64,000 nt of DNA from positions 15,655 through 79,654 of the forward strand of contig CAYLXN010000001.1 in assembly GCA_964388235.1 (NCBI GenBank). The letters run 5' to 3'. Both the position numbers and the translations under genes were made by a program. This DNA is from an uncultured Candidatus Saccharibacteria bacterium. Lineage in GTDB: Bacteria; Patescibacteriota; Saccharimonadia; Saccharimonadales; Saccharimonadaceae. Each line of letters opens with the position of its first letter. The first letter of the stretch is position 1. A model generated the notes under the pieces. That model was not told where the DNA came from and searched no databases. It saw nothing but the letters and a program-made list of their open reading frames with translations. Shown here in pieces: positions 19,634 to 59,052 of the stretch.

Positions 19634-19723
19634 GGAGAGATGTCCGAGTGGTTGAAGGAGCTGGTCTTGAAAACCAGTATGCGGGGAACCGTATCGAGGG
19701 TTCGAATCCCTCTCTCTCCGCCA
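19634..19723 (+). tRNA. tRNA-Ser (anticodon UGA), CCA encoded
   Basis: Hand fold: acceptor GGAGAGA/TCTCTCC, anticodon loop CTTGAAA, long variable arm, T-loop GGTTCGAATCC. Confidence 0.85.
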
Positions 19724-38289: not shown

Positions 38290-38378
38290 TGGCGGAGAGA
38301 GAGGGATTCGAACCCTCGAAAGCCAGGGGCTTTACCGCTTTTCGAGAGCGGCCAGATCAACCACTCCTGCATCTCTCC
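38290..38378 (-). tRNA. tRNA-Ser (anticodon CGA), CCA encoded
   Basis: The reverse complement folds with acceptor GGAGAGA/TCTCTCC, anticodon loop CTCGAAA, a long variable arm and GGTTCGAATCC. Confidence 0.85.
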
Positions 38379-39765: not shown

Positions 39766-39998
39766 GCAATTATCAGAGCTGTGTTGTTTCACGAAGCTCC
39801 TGCCTAAAACGTAACCTCCTCATTTTGGCTGAGGGGACGGCAACCGTCCAGTGGTTTACGTTTCACGCAGCAGCCTCCTATGGTACTCCTCCGCATCGAA
39901 GCTTTTGTATTTCACGAAGCTCCTGCCTAAAACGCAATATTCCTCAGCTGAGGGGACGGCAACCGTCCAGCAATTTACGTTTCACGCAGCAGCCTCCT
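39755..39998. repeat. Two tandem copies (period about 127 bp) of a tRNA-Ser(GCU)-derived structured repeat
   Basis: Both copies share these blocks: GGTACTCCTCCGCA (tRNA 5' end plus flank), TTTCACGAAGCTCCTGCCTAAAACG, CTGAGGGGACGGCAACCGTCCAG and TTTACGTTTCACGCAGCAGCCTCCT. Confidence 0.7.
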
Positions 39999-42303: not shown

Positions 42304-42393
42304 TGGCGGAGAGAAGGGGATTCGAACCCCTGATACGGTTGCCCGCATACACGCTTTCCAAGCGTGCTCCTTCAGCCACTCGGACATCTCTCC
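42304..42393 (-). tRNA. tRNA-Ser (anticodon GGA), CCA encoded
   Basis: The reverse complement folds with acceptor GGAGAGA/TCTCTCC, anticodon loop TTGGAAA, a long variable arm and GGTTCGAATCC. Confidence 0.85.
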
Positions 42394-42409: not shown

Positions 42410-42781
42410 TTATAGCAAATTTATTATTTTTGGGATAAAGATTAGCGAACCGACGAAGGCTGCTACGATCGCTGTGATCAGGACAGCAGCGGCGGACAAG
42501 TCTTTAATTTTGCGAATTTGCTCGCGCTTCTCGAGGCAAACAAAGTCCATAATGTTCTCGATGGCGGTGTTGAGGGTTTCGGTCGCTAACACCAAGCCGA
42601 TCATGATTGCTAGCACACAAATTTCAACTATGGGCGCTTTAAGAATAATTGCCACCGCAATTACGCCGATCGAGGCTAGTATATGAACAAAATAATTTCG
42701 CTCCTCGACAATTAACAATCTAATCCCGTCAATCGCGTGGGTGAAGCTCAACAAAAAAGCTTTCATGAATCGCCAAAACAT
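42410..42781 (-). CDS. dgkA: Diacylglycerol/undecaprenol kinase family protein (DgkA-like)
   Basis: Three TM helices with [14 protein letters not shown], typical of prokaryotic DAGK. The start was moved to the internal Met (42781) because a terminator and a TATAAT box (42794-42789, 7 nt before that ATG) lie inside the longer ORF. Met at 42766 is also possible. Confidence 0.7.
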
Positions 42782-42810
42782 GACTCTAATTATACAACTA
42801 ACAAGCCAAA

Positions 42811-42840
42811 ATAAAAACTCCACCGAATAAATCGGTGGAG
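42811..42840 (-). terminator. Intrinsic terminator ending the candidate ncRNA
   Basis: On the minus strand: CTCCACCGA-tttat-TCGGTGGAG followed by TTTTT (plus-strand A-run at 42813-42817). Confidence 0.6.
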
Positions 42841-43471
42841 GAAAACTCTATCTAATAATTTGTAACTGGTAAAACCAGCTACGCTAGGGCTTTATTTAAT
42901 TAATCTTGCGATTAACCAAATTACAAATTACTTTTTAAGGTAATTTGCTCTTTAGTCCTAGGTTCTGCTAGCATAAAATGTCTATAATCAGCATCAACTA
43001 AAGAAACTTTAATCAACAACTGTCATAAATCACTACACTAGCAGAGTCTAGAACTAAAACAGACTCTAGAGAGTTAACCTCGATAACTAATAGCCAACAA
43101 ATTTGACCAGACAAAGTCTTAAATCTAATCTGGGCCAATTAATTATAGTGATAGTCATCAGAACCAACCAGATCTAAACATTACTGTTTAAAAATGATTA
43201 ATCAGACGCAGTCAGGGGAGACTGTCGATAGATTGTAGTATTCACCAACCCTCAAATTAGCTAGTTAACTAAAGATAAAGTCAGATACAAATTGTAGCTA
43301 AAATTATCCGAATGACTAATTTCTTTGACAAAACTAGTAACTCGGTTAACTAGCTAAGTTGAAGGTTAGTAAGTCTATCAATTCATCAAGTAATCGGTGA
43401 TTAACTGGTGAATTATTACATAGGTTTAATGTTCGCGCTTTCGGGTGAGGTTTTGGTCTCATCAAAAGCGT
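42813..43471 (-). ncRNA. Candidate large non-coding RNA (about 650 nt), family unknown
   Basis: The stretch is ORF-free in all six frames apart from one spurious 66-aa ORF. It is bounded by a consensus promoter and an intrinsic terminator. It contains several perfect long-range inverted repeats, e.g. TTAGCTAGTTAAC 43257-43269 / GTTAACTAGCTAA 43345-43357. Confidence 0.4.
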
Positions 43472-43477
43472 AATTGC

Positions 43478-43506
43478 ATTATAGCATAAGCATTTTAATT
43501 TGTCAA
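43478..43506 (-). promoter_or_regulatory. Consensus sigma70-type promoter (TTGACA-17 nt-TATAAT) on the minus strand
   Basis: On the minus strand TTGACA = 43506-43501, the spacer is 17 nt, and TATAAT = 43483-43478. Confidence 0.6.
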
Positions 43507-43547
43507 TAAAAATGTTGTAATTGTAGTCAAAAATACAGCAAAACAAA

Positions 43548-43579
43548 TGAAAAAGTCCTTCTCCACAAGGGAGAAGGAC
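43548..43579 (-). terminator. Intrinsic terminator after the 134-aa gene
   Basis: GTCCTTCTCC (43555-43564) / GGAGAAGGAC (43570-43579), followed on the minus strand by TTTTT. Confidence 0.65.
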
Positions 43580-43591
43580 GAAATGAACTAG

Positions 43592-43996
43592 TTAGAAGCA
43601 GTATTTGGACAATTTGTCCAATAATTTTTCTGTTTCTTTTTTTGAGAACCCTAAATGCTTTTCCCAGAAATTATATCTTCTGGAGAAGCGGGACTCTGCT
43701 CCTCTAAGACGATCAAGAATCACTTCTTTATCGTCCAAAGACACCTCCCATAAGCCTCTGTCTTCTGGGGCGAACCACAATTCCGCCACTCTGCAGTAGA
43801 CCTGGTGGGCTTCGTTGTCGGAAAAATAGACGATTCCGTCTACTTTTTCCTCAATCACCAACGAAAGAAACACGGCTTCTTGACCAAAAGAATAATATGG
43901 TCTTTTTTTGTCGTAGTACTCAGCAAATTCCTCAGAGTACTCTTCTTCTTTAAATTTTTCCGCTGCTTCCAGCGGATTTTTAAAACAATTATCCAT
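43592..43996 (-). CDS. Hypothetical acidic protein (134 aa)
   Basis: ORF with a GGAGGAAAT SD-like sequence upstream. No motif recognised. Confidence 0.5.
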   Translation of the reverse strand: MDNCFKNPLEAAEKFKEEEYSEEFAEYYDKKRPYYSFGQEAVFLSLVIEEKVDGIVYFSDNEAHQVYCRVAELWFAPEDRGLWEVSLDDKEVILDRLRGAESRFSRRYNFWEKHLGFSKKETEKLLDKLSKYCF

Positions 43997-44152
43997 AATT
44001 TCCTCCTTATAGATAATTCTTAGTTAGACACCTCCTATTCCTTTGGCACCTAGCTTTCGACATTATAGCATAAAAACACAAAAAGTCAATAGATTAGCTG
44101 TTAAATTTGGTTGAGTTGCAGGGGGTGGAGTTTTTTTGCTATAATAAAGTCG

Positions 44153-45814
44153 ATGAAACAAATTGAGGTTTTGATCCAACAGGTGATCGCCGACTTGTGG
44201 CAGCAGTCGGTTGATTTGGAATTGACGCCGACTAAACCTGAGTTTGGCGACCTAGCGACTAATGTGGCGATGCGGCTGGCTGGTCAAATTGGCGCTCAGC
44301 CGCGGGAAGTTGCCGAGCAGATTGTGGCTAGGCTGGCTGATCAACCGTTGATTGCTGATGCCAGCGTGGCAGGGCCAGGATTTATTAATCTGCGATTATC
44401 TGATCAGGCAATTGCCGAAGCGTGGGCGAGCAAGATTGATTTAATTTATCAAGATCAGGTAGTGGTCTGTGAATTTTCTGATCCAAATCCGTTTAAAGTT
44501 TTGCACGCAGGGCATTTATATACTAGTGTGGTCGGTGAAGCGATTGCTATTTTAGTCGAAGCCACTGGTGGCAAAGTCTATCGGTTAAACTTCGGTGGTG
44601 ATGTTGGCTTGCACGTCGGTAAGACCATGTGGGCGATTCTACAAGCGTTAGGTGGTGAGCAGCCTGGCGAATTAGCCAAAGTGCCTGTCGCTGACCGCTC
44701 AGATTGGTTGGCGGCGCGCTATGTCGAAGGTTCGCAGGCGTTTGAGGACGATGCAGCGGCGGAAGCTGAGATTCGCCAGTTAAACCAACGAGTTTATCAA
44801 ATCCATCAACAGGATGATCACCAATCTAATTTAGCTCAGATTTATTGGCAGACACGAGACTGGAGTTATGATTATTTTAAAGCTTTTTATCAGCGGATTG
44901 GGGTTAAATTTGATCGTTTTTACCCTGAAAGTGCGGTGGCTGAGCGGGGACTAGCCGAAGTTCAGGCTCAAATTGGCCAAACTTTCACCGAATCAGATGG
45001 AGCAGTGGTGTTTGAGGGTGAAAAATTTGGTTTGCATACTCGAGTGTTTATCAATAAGCAAGGTTTGCCAACTTACGAAGCTAAAGATGTTGGTTTGGCG
45101 TTTACGAAGTATGACGATTATCATTATGATAAGTCGATTATTATTACGGCTGATGAGCAGAAGCAGTACATGGAAGTGGTGTTGAAGGCGCTGGAGCAGT
45201 TTGCGCCGCAAGTGTCGGAGACGACAACTCACATCACGCATGGGATGGTCAAATTAGCTGGTGGCGAGAAGATGAGCAGCCGCAAGGGGAACTTCCTGCG
45301 AGCGGTCGACGTACTAGATGTTGCTAGCCAGGCTCAGGCTGAGCAAAATAGCCAAGCTAACGAAGCTGTGTCGCTAGGGGCGGTTAAGTATTCGTTCCTC
45401 AAGGTTCGGGTTGGCGGTAATCTGATTTACGATCCCGAAGAATCAGTCAGTTTGGCTGGTAACAGCGGGCCGTATTTGCAGTATGCTCATGCTCGAGCTT
45501 GCTCGGTGTTAGCTAAGCTGAGCGAGGAGTCAGATTTGGCTGATCAGTTGAGGTTCGATCCCGATGAGCGCAATTTAGCTCTAAAATTAATCGGTTTTAA
45601 TGCGGCAATTGAGACGGCGGCTCGGGAGTTTTTGCCGCATGTAGTTTGTAATTATTTGTATGAATTAGCCCAGGAATTTAACCGTTTTTATGAACAATCG
45701 CCGATTATTGGCTCTGATCGACAAGCAATTCGGACTCAATTAGTGCGCCGTTATCGCCAGACATTGGCTGACGGTTTGAAAATATTAGGCATTAAACCAC
45801 TGGAGAAAATGTAA
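44153..45814 (+). CDS. argS: Arginine--tRNA ligase
   Basis: Class I HIGH-type motif (LHAGHLYT), KMSSRKGN in place of KMSKS, and a C-terminal DALR anticodon-binding region. The start was moved to the ATG at 44153, 7 nt after TATAAT (44140-44145). Confidence 0.9.
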   Translation: MKQIEVLIQQVIADLWQQSVDLELTPTKPEFGDLATNVAMRLAGQIGAQPREVAEQIVARLADQPLIADASVAGPGFINLRLSDQAIAEAWASKIDLIYQDQVVVCEFSDPNPFKVLHAGHLYTSVVGEAIAILVEATGGKVYRLNFGGDVGLHVGKTMWAILQALGGEQPGELAKVPVADRSDWLAARYVEGSQAFEDDAAAEAEIRQLNQRVYQIHQQDDHQSNLAQIYWQTRDWSYDYFKAFYQRIGVKFDRFYPESAVAERGLAEVQAQIGQTFTESDGAVVFEGEKFGLHTRVFINKQGLPTYEAKDVGLAFTKYDDYHYDKSIIITADEQKQYMEVVLKALEQFAPQVSETTTHITHGMVKLAGGEKMSSRKGNFLRAVDVLDVASQAQAEQNSQANEAVSLGAVKYSFLKVRVGGNLIYDPEESVSLAGNSGPYLQYAHARACSVLAKLSEESDLADQLRFDPDERNLALKLIGFNAAIETAAREFLPHVVCNYLYELAQEFNRFYEQSPIIGSDRQAIRTQLVRRYRQTLADGLKILGIKPLEKM

Positions 45815-56228: not shown

Positions 56229-58364
56229 ATGGATGAAAACGCACAACGCTCAAAATTAATTGAACAAGCCAAGCAAGCTAATAATATTTTAGTGGCGGTT
56301 AGTAGCAATCCAAGCGTCGATGAATTGTCGGCAGCTTTAGGTTTAACATTGATGTTAAACAAAAATGATCGTCGGGCAGTAGCGGTGTTTAGCGGCGAGA
56401 TTCCTGATGTATTGTCGTTTTTGAAGCCAGAAAAAACTTTTGACAAGAACGCTGATGGCTTGCGTGATTTTATCATTTCACTGGATCCGAAAAAGGCTGA
56501 CTACTTGCGCTACAAAGTAGTTGATGACATGGTGCGGATTTTTATTACTCCGAATAACACCGTGATTACCTCTAAAGATTTAGAATTTAGTCAGGGTGAT
56601 TATAATGTCGATATGGTAATTGCCGTTGGGGTGAGTAGTCAAGATCAACTAGATCAGGCTTTGCGTTCGCATGGCCGAATTTTGCATGACGCGGCGGTGT
56701 TCGCGATTAGTATTGGCAACCAAACCAGTAATCTAGGAACTGATAATTGGCACGATGCCAAGGCGGCTTCGTACGCGCAATTGATCGCGACTTTGCCAAG
56801 CTTGATTGATGCAGGTGAGGAAAATAACCAAGATTATGAATCGGCCATGGATAAGCAAGTAGCCAACGCTCTACTCACTGGTTTAGTGGCTACTACCAAT
56901 CGATTTAGTAACAATAAAACCAACGCGGAAATTATGACTTTGGCAGCTGAGCTGATGAAGGCGGGTGCTAATCAACAGTTAATCGCTAATCAATTAGCCA
57001 GTGGTGGCCGAAAGAAGAAAACTGGTTTAAGGACTGATAAACAAGGTCCGCAAAATCAGGTTAGTTTGCGATTAGATAAGAAGCAAGATCAATCATCAGA
57101 AGTCGAAGCTGATAATGACAATGCTTCGAAAAATAATAACCAAAAATCGCAAGTCGATAAGTCTAATAAGAATTCAGACAACAAATCAGTTGACAAAACG
57201 CCAGCTCCCAAAAAAGCCGAGAAGGGAGTGTTGAATATTAAGCAACAGCAGAAGTCATCGCCGAAGGAAGAAGTTAAGCAGGCTGACGCTAAATCAGAAA
57301 TTAAACCAGTTGAGGCCAAAACAACCTCAGAAGAACCCCCAAAAACTAAAGATATTGACCCAGCTAAACTAACCGAGAATGAAAAAGCTTTGGCTCGCAT
57401 GGCATCAGAAGGCAACAAGAATTTCACTGATTTGGATGAATATTCGCGAGAGTATATTGAAACGAAGCGCAACCAAACAGCTGACGATTTAGTGGCTAAA
57501 TTAAAACACCAAGAATTAAAAGTTGATCAACTTGAACCAGATTTTTCGCCGCAACCAGAAGTAGTTGAGCCAGTTCCAGCAACTCAGCCGCCAGTTCAAT
57601 CGCTGCAATCAGAGCCTGTCATGGCTCCGTTAGCACCACCAATGGCGCCTGAAATCAACCCCTTAGGGGAAATGGTGGCTAGCCAACCAGCTCCAATCGA
57701 ACAAAACATTAGTCCAGTGCCAATTGTTGCTGCTAGCGATGAAAAGATTGACCCCAATCAAGCTGCTCAAGAGCTGAATGCCCAAGCTGATCAGCTAACC
57801 GATCGGTTGCAGAAGCAGCTCGAAGCTTCAGAACAAAAATATACCACACCGGCGGCTAATCAACCAGTGGTAGAAGTGCCAAATTTTGCGGGACAACAGG
57901 CGGCGCTAGCCCCCGAAGCAATCAACCCACCAATCGACCAATTTACTCAGCCGGTCGCTAATCCACCAGCTGCTGCACCAACTGAAGTACCAATGCCGCC
58001 AATGCCACCAACATTTGATCCGAATAATCCAGCCATGCCGCCAATGCCGCCAACTTTTGATGGCTTAGAATCAGCAACTTCTCAATCTCAACCCAATCCA
58101 TTTAACCAACTGGTTGATCAAATGAATCAGCCTCCAACTGAGCAAGCTAACCAGATTGATCAGCCAGCTCTAGCAGCTCAAGCTGGGCAAACCGTCCAGC
58201 CCCAGCCCAAGCCTCAATCTGTTGACACCAATCCGTTTTTAGCTGATAGTAAGGCAGCTAGCGAAGTCTTAGGCGGTGGTCAAATGTCAAGCGGCTCAAT
58301 CGCCACACCATCAATTTATCCACAGCCTGACCCTGACAGCTCACAATTTGTTATCCCTGAATAA
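56229..58364 (+). CDS. Hypothetical protein: DHH-like N-terminal domain with degenerate catalytic motifs + long P/Q-rich tail
   Basis: ILVAVSSNPSVDELSAALGL resembles NrnA/DHH motif I but the Asp residues are substituted. No DHH triad was seen. The C-terminal 400 aa are low complexity, including PMPPMPPTFD repeated twice. Confidence 0.45.
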   Translation: MDENAQRSKLIEQAKQANNILVAVSSNPSVDELSAALGLTLMLNKNDRRAVAVFSGEIPDVLSFLKPEKTFDKNADGLRDFIISLDPKKADYLRYKVVDDMVRIFITPNNTVITSKDLEFSQGDYNVDMVIAVGVSSQDQLDQALRSHGRILHDAAVFAISIGNQTSNLGTDNWHDAKAASYAQLIATLPSLIDAGEENNQDYESAMDKQVANALLTGLVATTNRFSNNKTNAEIMTLAAELMKAGANQQLIANQLASGGRKKKTGLRTDKQGPQNQVSLRLDKKQDQSSEVEADNDNASKNNNQKSQVDKSNKNSDNKSVDKTPAPKKAEKGVLNIKQQQKSSPKEEVKQADAKSEIKPVEAKTTSEEPPKTKDIDPAKLTENEKALARMASEGNKNFTDLDEYSREYIETKRNQTADDLVAKLKHQELKVDQLEPDFSPQPEVVEPVPATQPPVQSLQSEPVMAPLAPPMAPEINPLGEMVASQPAPIEQNISPVPIVAASDEKIDPNQAAQELNAQADQLTDRLQKQLEASEQKYTTPAANQPVVEVPNFAGQQAALAPEAINPPIDQFTQPVANPPAAAPTEVPMPPMPPTFDPNNPAMPPMPPTFDGLESATSQSQPNPFNQLVDQMNQPPTEQANQIDQPALAAQAGQTVQPQPKPQSVDTNPFLADSKAASEVLGGGQMSSGSIATPSIYPQPDPDSSQFVIPE

Positions 58365-58365
58365 A

Positions 58366-59022
58366 ATGCAGTTACCTGACAATGGCCTAATTGCTGTCGA
58401 TAAACCGTCCGGCATCTCGAGTTTTGGGGTGGTGGCCAAGGTCAGGTTTCTTCTGCGCCAACAATACGATCGTAAGATAAAAGTTGGCCATACGGGTACG
58501 CTGGATCCGTTTGCTAGCGGCTTGATGCTATTGGTAGTTGGAGATTATTGTAAACAGGCTCAGCAGTACTCGAAACTTGATAAAACCTATCTAGCTAATA
58601 TCGTTTTAGGTAGCCAAACGACAACTTATGATCTTGAGGGGCGACAAAAGTTAATTGCTCGCAATCAGCCGTCGATTAAGCAAATTGAGGCGGTGATTGA
58701 GAATTTTAAGGGTAAAATTGAGCAACAACCGCCCAGTTTCAGTGCGATTAAAATTAATGGCCAGCGAGCCTATAAATTGGCTCGGGCAGGGGCGACTGTG
58801 GAAATGCCGAAACGGCAGGTTGAGATTTATCAGTTGGAAATTATTAATTATAATTACCCGAATTTGCAGCTAAAAGTCAAAGTCTCGTCAGGGACTTATA
58901 TTCGCAGTTTGGCGGTTGATTTGGGTCGTAATTTGGCTTCAGGTGGTTATCTGAGCGAATTGAGGCGGCTAGAAGTTGGCGATTTTAGGGTTGATGATAT
59001 CCAGTTATTAGTTGATTTTTAG
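58366..59022 (+). CDS. truB: tRNA pseudouridine(55) synthase TruB
   Basis: GLIAVDKPSGISSF and the catalytic HTGTLDPFASG are present. The start was moved to the ATG at 58366, since the longer ORF overlaps the upstream gene. Confidence 0.9.
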   Translation: MQLPDNGLIAVDKPSGISSFGVVAKVRFLLRQQYDRKIKVGHTGTLDPFASGLMLLVVGDYCKQAQQYSKLDKTYLANIVLGSQTTTYDLEGRQKLIARNQPSIKQIEAVIENFKGKIEQQPPSFSAIKINGQRAYKLARAGATVEMPKRQVEIYQLEIINYNYPNLQLKVKVSSGTYIRSLAVDLGRNLASGGYLSELRRLEVGDFRVDDIQLLVDF

Positions 59023-59052
59023 TTTCAGCTTGCTATAATAAGCGTAACTATT

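Follow-up and report, generated by a model that had tools for sequence, protein, structure and literature searches.

The stretch of DNA analyzed here (hereafter, the window) spans 64,000 nucleotides (nt) of contig CAYLXN010000001.1 from an uncultured Candidatus Saccharibacteria bacterium. Between a gene for a 134-aa orphan protein and dgkA lies an interval that is free of credible open reading frames (ORFs) and is bounded on the minus strand by a promoter and an intrinsic terminator. We consider it very probable that this interval (hereafter, the element) constitutes a stand-alone gene whose product is a structured non-coding RNA (ncRNA) of ~660 nt, encoded on the minus strand.

The locus and its transcription signals

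The element begins with a sigma-70 promoter (43506-43478, minus strand) in which TTGACA (43506-43501) and TATAAT (43483-43478) are separated by a 17-nt spacer that ends in TGC. The promoter scores 12/12 against the consensus, with the TGC forming an extended -10. An exact TTGACA-N16-18-TATAAT arrangement occurs only once in the 64 kb, against a chance expectation of 0.07. In the homologous locus of a related lineage (lineage B, introduced below; the window represents lineage A), both hexamers are identical, and 2 substitutions fall in the spacer. The -35 box is preceded by an A/T-rich, conserved block that resembles an UP element (43507..43537, minus strand) and marks the 5' limit of conservation with lineage B, which thus starts ~35 nt upstream of the -35 box.

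At the opposite end lies an intrinsic terminator, helix H17 (42811..42840, minus strand), in which a 9-bp hairpin with 6 G-C pairs (42840-42818) is followed by the U-tract TTTTTATTTT. Lineage B shows a G-C to A-U double change in this hairpin, and in one strain a C-G pair has become U-G. The upstream 134-aa gene possesses a terminator of its own (43545..43579, minus strand; hairpin 43579-43555 plus a T-run), and the RNA promoter is therefore isolated from upstream transcription. The predicted transcript of ~660 nt (42811..43471, minus strand) would start at A43471 and end in the U-tract. This start, 7th in the row of nucleotides that follow the -10 box, was chosen because in leaderless Saccharibacteria genes the ATG occupies the 7th nt after TATAAT.

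According to a crude gene map, the ORF-free gap around the element measures 768 nt and is the largest in the window, in which the median intergenic gap is 68 nt and the 90th percentile 207 nt. A first-pass annotation, made from the letters of this DNA and a list of its ORFs, had pointed to the unusual length of the interval, to its minus-strand consensus promoter with the terminator of the preceding gene upstream, and to the hairpin with a T-run before the -10 box of dgkA. These descriptions were borne out, and every sequence feature listed in that annotation is present, exactly or within 1-2 nt of where it had been placed.

Conservation in a second lineage

By its sequence, the window organism is a member of Saccharibacteria (Saccharimonadales). 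The best relatives of its ArgRS (gene at 44111-45814) are found in metagenome-assembled genomes of Saccharibacteria and share 51-61% identity with it, apart from one relative at ~80-81%. A search of 5.8 billion protein clusters with ArgRS returned the identical protein and one 80% relative, all other matches being at or below 64%; thus, the host lineage is very thinly sampled. The 80% relative, lineage B, comes from anaerobic-digester metagenomes, and one of the samples that hold it is a pig-manure anaerobic digester (PMC13644194).

The argS contigs of this relative (L081 and L009) stop exactly at the promoter or before it, and the homologous element was reached from the dgkA side. A DgkA homologue with 84% identity is encoded on seven Logan/ENA contigs (L083-L086, L093-L095), all of which carry the whole element and align to window positions 43537-42364 at ~82.7%. 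Because the seven contigs are 99.3-100% identical to each other, the comparison is effectively one of two lineages, A and B. Lineage A is also represented by other, independent assemblies (L082 and L096), which are 99.98-100% identical to the window. Being present in separate assemblies of both lineages, the element is not an assembly artifact.

The transcript is 87.6% identical in lineages A and B, with 92-98% identity in the first 200 alignment columns and 93% in the 5' 250 columns. For the genes encoding ArgRS, an RNase T-like exonuclease, PolA, and DgkA, nucleotide identity is 75-77%, and their codon positions show 82-85% (first), 89-92% (second), and 48-57% (third) identity. At four-fold sites, identity is 52-55% in the genes for ArgRS, PolA, and the exonuclease, and 39-42% in dgkA and the gene for a 114-aa protein. 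The element is constrained about as strongly as the first and second codon positions of essential genes. Recent horizontal transfer of the segment was considered as a cause of the 87.6% identity and rejected, because the adjacent dgkA has diverged normally.

Fold stability and the pattern of substitutions

The second line of evidence is the stability of the predicted fold. The minus-strand transcript (43472-42810) has a minimum free energy of -234.9 kcal/mol, compared with -139.9 ± 6.0 kcal/mol for dinucleotide shuffles (z = -15.9); the plus strand of the element reaches -165.6 kcal/mol (z = -6.2). Such stability is exceptional for an RNA of 33.6% G+C. For reference, the coding stretch 58365-59052 of the same window yields z-values of -3.7 and -3.0, and six other ORF-free gaps of at least 350 nt, found in 1.3 Mb of Saccharibacteria DNA, range from +1.9 to -9.5.

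The third line of evidence is the manner in which lineage B departs from lineage A. For this comparison the fold was predicted from lineage A alone, and lineage B was not used to define the structure. The 76 substitutions of lineage B touch 46 predicted pairs, 41 of which are kept (9 by double change) and 5 broken. When the same types of substitution were placed at random positions of the same base, 27.3 ± 3.0 pairs were broken, never fewer than 16 in 2000 trials, and only 1.6 double changes arose, compared with the 9 observed. The same substitutions applied to the plus-strand fold keep 12 pairs and break 18, compared with 41 and 5, respectively, for the minus-strand fold, and this identifies the minus strand as the RNA. 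Analogously, threading the real substitutions into sequence A gives a fold of -240.5 kcal/mol, versus -182.4 ± 9.3 kcal/mol for random placement (best, -210 kcal/mol). The lineage B sequence alone folds at -242.9 kcal/mol.

The RNAalifold consensus of the alignment contains 257 pairs, and compensatory double changes are seen in 10 of these. In the count over consensus pairs, 97.4% of the cells are paired, a value that includes helix H10 entered with wrong pairs (72.5% paired; its correct pairs are those in the RNAalifold consensus). When partners are slid by 1-3 columns, the paired fraction is 31-44%, and the number of double changes is 0-1 rather than 10. Separate single-sequence folds of A and B have 215 of ~255 pairs in common.

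It should be noted that the two parts of the RNA evolve differently. The 5' 250 nt are equally fixed at paired and unpaired positions (93% and 92%, respectively), and the 3' 400 nt change largely in a pair-preserving way. These patterns indicate that the fold and its local helices are under selection, the support holding for the structure as a whole and for two lineages. The first-pass annotation had stated that a lack of conservation or of covariation in related genomes would count against an RNA gene. What is seen is 87.6% identity, versus ~52% at the four-fold sites of flanking genes, and the preservation of 41 of the 46 touched pairs on the minus strand only.

Architecture of the predicted RNA

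Approximately 77% of the alignment columns are paired, in ~17 helices, and 39 of the 257 pairs are G-U. All helices described below are given on the minus strand. The predicted RNA opens with H1 (43434..43472), a 14-bp hairpin at the 5' terminus in which the ACCAAAAC loop is conserved and two one-sided changes keep the pairing; H1 is predicted in both lineages. It is followed by H2, a putative long-range helix in which 43427-43411 would pair with 42860-42843, thereby enclosing the span 42843..43427; this helix, like the local hairpins, is predicted in both lineages.

The most conserved part is the 5' core, formed by H4-H7 (43225..43389), in which H4 closes a three-way junction of H5, H6, and H7. 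H5 comprises 27 bp, is near-invariant on both strands, and holds a 13-nt inverted repeat; H6 comprises 14 bp. Two double compensatory changes, U-A to C-G and A-U to G-C, flank the junction. H5-H7 are predicted identically in both lineages, H4 being less certain.

Downstream of the core, H8 (43209..43224) is a 5-bp hairpin with an invariant UCCCCU loop. Two of its five pairs are changed on both sides (CAGUC/GACUG to UGGUC/GACCA) with the loop unchanged. The H9/H10 hairpin (43156..43208) shows eight one-sided, pair-keeping changes and is capped by a GNRA tetraloop, which reads GUAA in lineage A and GCAA in lineage B; the GNRA pattern is thus kept, and the other loops are invariant. H11 (43080..43151) is an interrupted hairpin of 29 bp with 1 double and 5 one-sided pair-keeping changes and 98.8% of cells paired. 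H13 (42950..43059), a rod of 50 bp interrupted every 11-14 bp, is predicted in both lineages and has accumulated 3 double and 6 one-sided changes with 100% of cells paired. Three further hairpins occupy 42862..42948, namely H14 (42948-42923), with the loop CCUUAAAAA; H15 (42921-42894), with a GCAA tetraloop at 42909-42906; and H16 (42882-42862), which corresponds to a CTGGT..ACCAG repeat. In H16 (GUAGCUGGU-UUU-ACCAGUUAC), five one-sided substitutions leave all pairs intact through G-U wobble. Such wobble pairs can form solely in the minus-strand RNA and therefore constitute additional evidence for the strand.

The first-pass annotation had drawn attention to four inverted repeats capable of long-range pairing. 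All four are present in the sequence, and two of them found a place in the consensus fold: the 13-nt repeat (43257-43269 and 43345-43357) belongs to H5, and CTGGT..ACCAG to H16. The other two, TAATTTGTAA/TTACAAATTA and AGAGTCT/AGACTCT, are not part of it. A U-to-C change in strain L083 would break AGAGTCT/AGACTCT but improves a pair of the consensus model. No internal duplication or repeat units were found in the element.

Coding capacity

The largest ORF in the interval on either strand encodes 66 aa, has a TTG start, and begins upstream of the promoter. In lineage A, the longest sense ORFs encode 41, 39, 32, and 26 aa; each starts with TTG and is stopped or truncated in lineage B, and the core contains a 1-nt deletion between the lineages. 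ORFs that are open in both lineages reach 16-17 aa in the sense and up to 21 aa in the antisense direction, with TTG or GTG starts. A coding or dual-function RNA was rejected, since the larger ORFs are broken in lineage B. The first-pass statement that the interval holds no credible ORF agrees with these observations. The same annotation had reasoned that an intact ORF in relatives would reveal a decayed pseudogene; in lineage B, stop codons interrupt the longest of the short ORFs.

Searches for known families and homologues

A cmscan search of the whole window against Rfam 15 at gathering thresholds returned tRNAs only. Scanning the region at E-values up to 10 produced sub-threshold noise (Teg49, JA04, L10 leader, and similar fragments) driven by terminators and A/U-rich runs, and scanning the lineage B loci returned nothing. 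As far as the sensitivity of the Rfam models goes, there was no covariance-model match to ROOL, GOLLD, OLE, raiA, or HEARO, the families for which the first-pass annotation had suggested a check. RNase P RNA, transfer-messenger RNA (tmRNA), 6S RNA, signal recognition particle RNA, rRNA fragments, and group I/II introns likewise gave no model match, and ARAGORN called no tmRNA. For riboswitches, T-boxes, and ribosomal-protein leaders there was no match above noise, and dgkA keeps its own -10 box in both lineages. Retron, DRT, bridge, and omega RNAs were considered as well and set aside: the neighbors are dgkA, the 134-aa orphan, and argS, among which PADLOC and Pfam detect nothing relevant. These are protein-partnered mobile or defense RNAs, found next to a reverse transcriptase, recombinase, or TnpB gene. 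Some strains possess the RNA but lack the 134-aa gene.

Homologues beyond the two lineages were sought in several collections. Neither nhmmer nor blastn searches of the region against 80 argS neighborhoods of Saccharibacteria returned a match, and a covariance model of the 5' core (model R1), run over 91 sources totaling 1.47 Mb, recovered only the sequences from which it had been built. A profile nhmmer search of further dgkA loci was equally negative. In the lineages that come next in dgkA similarity (58%, 52%, and 51% identity), the neighbors are different and the element is missing; in the 58% lineage, dgkA lies directly behind another gene. Three conserved blocks gave no match in IMG/VR, and blastn gave none in phage and plasmid collections. 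A multi-copy or mobile element was rejected, as no second copy occurs in the window or in any locus. In the literature searched, no description of a large orphan RNA in Saccharibacteria or the Candidate Phyla Radiation (CPR) was found. A 20-mer scan of JGI metagenomes produced a single chance match of 21 nt, at 7136-7156 of contig L097 (Ga0153978_1000556). This contig shares nothing else with the element and is unusually poor in long ORFs.

Two ORF-free gaps of distant Saccharibacteria, L057:1987-2388 (z = -8.5/-5.7) and L071:16406-16812 (z = -6.1/-9.5), lack an Rfam match and may represent further unannotated structured RNAs. Model R1 indicates no relation between them and the element.

Neighboring genes and other features of the window

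Downstream of the element lies dgkA (42410..42794, minus strand), with its own -10 box at 42794-42789, an ATG at 42781 (7 nt later), and a 123-aa product that matches the Pfam family DAGK_prokar (E = 2.6e-27). The -10 box and its spacing to the ATG are conserved in lineage B, and dgkA is, judging from this layout, probably leaderless. Its -35 box is poor, because the T-run of the terminator occupies the position. Perfect consensus promoters whose -10 box is followed by an ATG at exactly the 7th nt were also seen at L045:810-848, L074:907-944, L077:11666-11703, and L077:17433-17470; on such sequence patterns, leaderless mRNAs seem to be common in Saccharibacteria. Besides the two close lineages and the one at 58% identity, the named DgkA hits are all from Bacteroidota (42-49%), and unnamed metagenome hits reach ~52%, a distribution suggesting that dgkA may have been acquired horizontally.

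The gene for tRNA-Ser(GGA) (42304..42393, minus strand) follows 16 nt after dgkA, and the order RNA-dgkA-tRNA-Ser is kept in lineage B. The first-pass annotation had likened the locus to those of GOLLD and ROOL on account of its tRNA neighbor. A tRNA gene is indeed near, but it lies ~420 nt downstream of the element, beyond dgkA, and the likeness is a loose one. GOLLD and ROOL are also frequent in prophages; no phage genes were recognized near the element. All lineage B contigs end where tRNA-Ser(GGA) begins, and 28 nt at this place are shared with another tRNA-Ser of the window (19634-19661). ARAGORN additionally calls a tRNA-Ser(CGA) at 38290-38378 that is not in the Rfam list at gathering thresholds; with it, the window contains four tRNA-Ser genes.

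The region upstream of the element is far more variable. In the window, it holds the 134-aa orphan gene (43592-43996, minus strand), located just upstream of the RNA promoter. The corresponding place is taken by a gene for a 109-aa protein, 39% identical to the orphan, in L081:113-442, and by unrelated DNA and genes, including an 850-nt stretch without called genes, in L083:2347-3198. In L084:1351-1411, argS abuts the RNA promoter and the 134-aa gene is missing. The flanking orphan genes have no match in Pfam, NCBIfam, or PADLOC. This variation hot spot ends ~35 nt before the -35 box. Because the upstream flanks differ between strains, the conserved unit consists of the promoter, RNA, terminator, dgkA, and tRNA-Ser.

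Two further observations concern more distant parts of the window. A direct repeat of ~24 nt (GCTGAGGGGACGGCAACCGTCCAG) occurs at 39832-39855 and 39951-39974 (plus strand), the copies being 119 nt apart in a 368-nt gap between tRNA-Ser(GCT) and a type IV secretion pilin gene; each copy has a hairpin GGACGG..CCGTCC. The only other large gap that the gene map seemed to show, at 58365-59052, was considered as a sister element and rejected, because it is covered by a 248-aa ORF that we take, from reading its translation by eye, to encode a pseudouridine synthase. As listed (58276-59022), this ORF overlaps the 3' end of the gene for a 711-aa low-complexity protein (56229-58364) by 89 nt; its true start is probably a later codon.

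Interpretation

The conservation of the element, its pair-keeping substitutions, and the absence of an Rfam match support the proposal, made in the first-pass annotation, that the minus strand encodes a large structured ncRNA not yet described. The element is a new, lineage-restricted RNA family within the known category of orphan large bacterial ncRNAs. In the collections searched, it is restricted to a single genus-level clade found in anaerobic digesters. Bacterial ncRNAs longer than ~400 nt are rare, and genomes of CPR/Patescibacteria are tiny, with very little non-coding DNA. A 0.66-kb RNA gene that is under purifying selection in a tiny genome with a median spacer of 68 nt must therefore do something important.

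As to the nature of this role, the RNA may act in trans as a stable folded particle, a mechanism that we propose by analogy with known large RNAs and rate at slightly below an even chance. Transcription would start near 43471 from the sigma-70 promoter and end at the intrinsic terminator (42840-42811). Because consensus promoters are rare in this genome and the element has one, the resulting RNA would presumably be abundant; it would also be nuclease-resistant, with both ends protected by hairpins. A protein or a second nucleic acid would recognize the 5' core in a sequence-specific manner. The 3' two-thirds, with their rods, would serve as a structural scaffold in which only pairing is selected, and the long-range H2 would possibly join the 5' and 3' parts. 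The combined reading, an ncRNA gene whose product works as a trans-acting particle, is held with moderate confidence.

Several points weigh against this interpretation. The trans-acting particle is argued by analogy because the data point to no partner or target. In all collections searched, the element occurs in two lineages; the comparative evidence is thus that of a single divergence event and bears on the structure as a whole rather than, as R-scape statistics would, on individual pairs. The comparative support for H2 is weak, amounting to 1 wobble change and 1 broken pair, and H3, H4, and H12 are uncertain, not being recovered in the single-sequence fold of lineage A. The G+C content of the element (33.6%) is below that of its surroundings (42-45%); structured RNAs in A/T-rich genomes are usually richer in G+C than their surroundings, the reverse of what is seen here. 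Finally, given the weak -35 box of dgkA, some read-through into dgkA, and hence a role in cis, may occur.

A bolder possibility, which we regard as tentative and rather doubtful, is that the element is the first member of a new class of giant "ornate" RNAs specific to Saccharibacteria, with a role outside the known RNA classes. If so, given the fixed linkage to dgkA, it could represent an assembly, of RNA alone or of RNA with protein, that is connected with the epibiotic lifestyle or with the recycling of lipids or the envelope. The gaps in L057 and L071 would then hint that lineage-specific large RNAs are more widespread in the reduced genomes of Saccharibacteria.

The alternative that survives best, although we consider it unlikely, is a trans base-pairing regulator of the RNAIII type, whose conserved loops (UCCCCU, ACCAAAAC, CCUUAAAAA, and ACCGAUUAC) would pair with ribosome-binding site (RBS) regions or other parts of mRNAs. 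A large multi-hairpin RNA with invariant loops is what such a regulator would look like, and the UCCCCU loop in particular is unchanged on an H8 stem with two compensatory pair changes, which indicates that the loop itself is conserved. The genome, too, uses RBSs of the GGAGG type, e.g., before the 134-aa gene. However, the 28 occurrences in the window of AGGGGA, the sequence complementary to this loop, are not visibly enriched ahead of start codons, and many genes in this group appear to be leaderless and would have no RBS to target. Near-invariance of both strands of the 27-bp H5 is not needed by a regulator acting through loop seeds. Moreover, RNAIII and other Rfam models of small RNAs give sub-threshold noise only, and a conserved ORF for an hld-like peptide is missing, the 16-17-aa ORFs that remain open having TTG starts.

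Less probable still is a precursor that RNase III or other nucleases would cut into smaller RNAs. The rods, of up to 50 bp in H13 and 27 + 14 bp in H5/H6, do resemble substrates of double-strand-specific nucleases, and the products would be shielded by the hairpins at the 5' and 3' ends, which are very stable. Nevertheless, a bulge or internal loop occurs every 11-14 bp in these helices, and such interruptions tend to prevent RNase III cleavage. Selection, furthermore, maintains the whole set of helices together with a possible end-to-end closing helix, and there is no repeated unit inside the RNA.

We attach marginally less weight, and little in absolute terms, to a very long cis leader of dgkA, in which signal-dependent read-through past 42840-42811 would extend transcription into dgkA and tRNA-Ser. 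This explanation draws on the position of the element, which lies directly upstream of dgkA on the same strand; on RNA-dgkA-tRNA-Ser being the sole conserved neighborhood next to a variable upstream flank; and on the poor -35 box of dgkA. It is at odds with the conserved TATAAT of dgkA itself and the ATG 7 nt downstream, which is nearly the layout of a leaderless gene, and with the strength of the terminator (9 bp, 6 G-C, and a long U-run), for which no anti-terminator pairing was found by eye. No riboswitch, T-box, or leader model matches, and the next lineage out (DgkA 58% identical) has dgkA without the element. To our knowledge, a 660-nt leader for a 123-aa protein is unprecedented.

The remaining alternative, that there is no RNA gene and that the interval is a decaying pseudogene, a neutral spacer, or an inverted-repeat element acting at the DNA level (an origin, recombination site, or mobile relic), might be suggested by an A/T-rich, ORF-free sequence with many inverted repeats, type IV secretion pilin genes nearby, and strain-variable DNA directly upstream, but it is very improbable in view of the 87.6% identity (versus ~52% for neutral sites) with structure-preserving substitutions, the strand-specific wobble (41 pairs kept and 5 broken on the minus strand versus 12 and 18 on the plus strand) that would not be expected of duplex DNA, the lack of a second copy or of any match in phage, plasmid, or viral collections, a cumulative GC skew that dips only locally and was read as showing no switch of the replication-origin type, and the exact bounding of the element by a consensus promoter and a terminator.

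With the stand-alone RNA gene as the preferred reading, the element offers a compact, well-delimited target for in-vitro probing or cryo-electron microscopy. A covariance model run over all Patescibacteria would distinguish the invention of one genus from the tip of a wider family.

Comparison with known large RNAs

The RNAIII of Staphylococcus aureus is a 514-nt regulatory RNA with multiple hairpins. The element differs from it in having no conserved hld-like peptide gene, no model match, no target signal, and no adjacent quorum-sensing genes. The two have in common a large size, a transcription unit of their own (predicted in the case of the element), extensive structure, long-range helices that close domains, and C-rich hairpin loops with the potential to pair with G-rich sites in mRNAs. 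The 6S RNA, which stands here for rod-shaped RNAs that bind proteins, shares with the element a very strong promoter, long irregular rods with small bulges, and paired 5' and 3' regions; unlike 6S RNA, however, the element is more than 3 times longer and multi-branched, has no large central bubble in its rods, and does not match the model.

The closest comparison is with the orphan RNAs OLE, ROOL, GOLLD, and raiA. By cryo-electron microscopy, GOLLD, ROOL, and OLE form homo-oligomeric, RNA-only complexes, and each of OLE, GOLLD, ROOL, and raiA has opened unexpected structural biology (PMC12286853). The raiA RNA is abundant and of unknown function (PMC12968392). OLE is associated in genomes with the genes for OLE-associated proteins (oapA and others); the element has dgkA, the 134-aa orphan, and argS as its neighbors. 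The element stands apart from these families by its far narrower distribution, in two lineages of one Saccharibacteria clade; by its longer and more regular helices with few large conserved single-stranded regions; and by its low G+C content, the lack of a prophage context in the window, and the lack of covariance-model similarity. Nevertheless, it shares with GOLLD and ROOL a loose tRNA neighborhood; with OLE, ROOL, and GOLLD a stand-alone gene of similar size (~0.6-0.8 kb in those families); and with all four, raiA included, the status of an orphan RNA and an architecture of many helices, multi-way junctions, and GNRA tetraloops.

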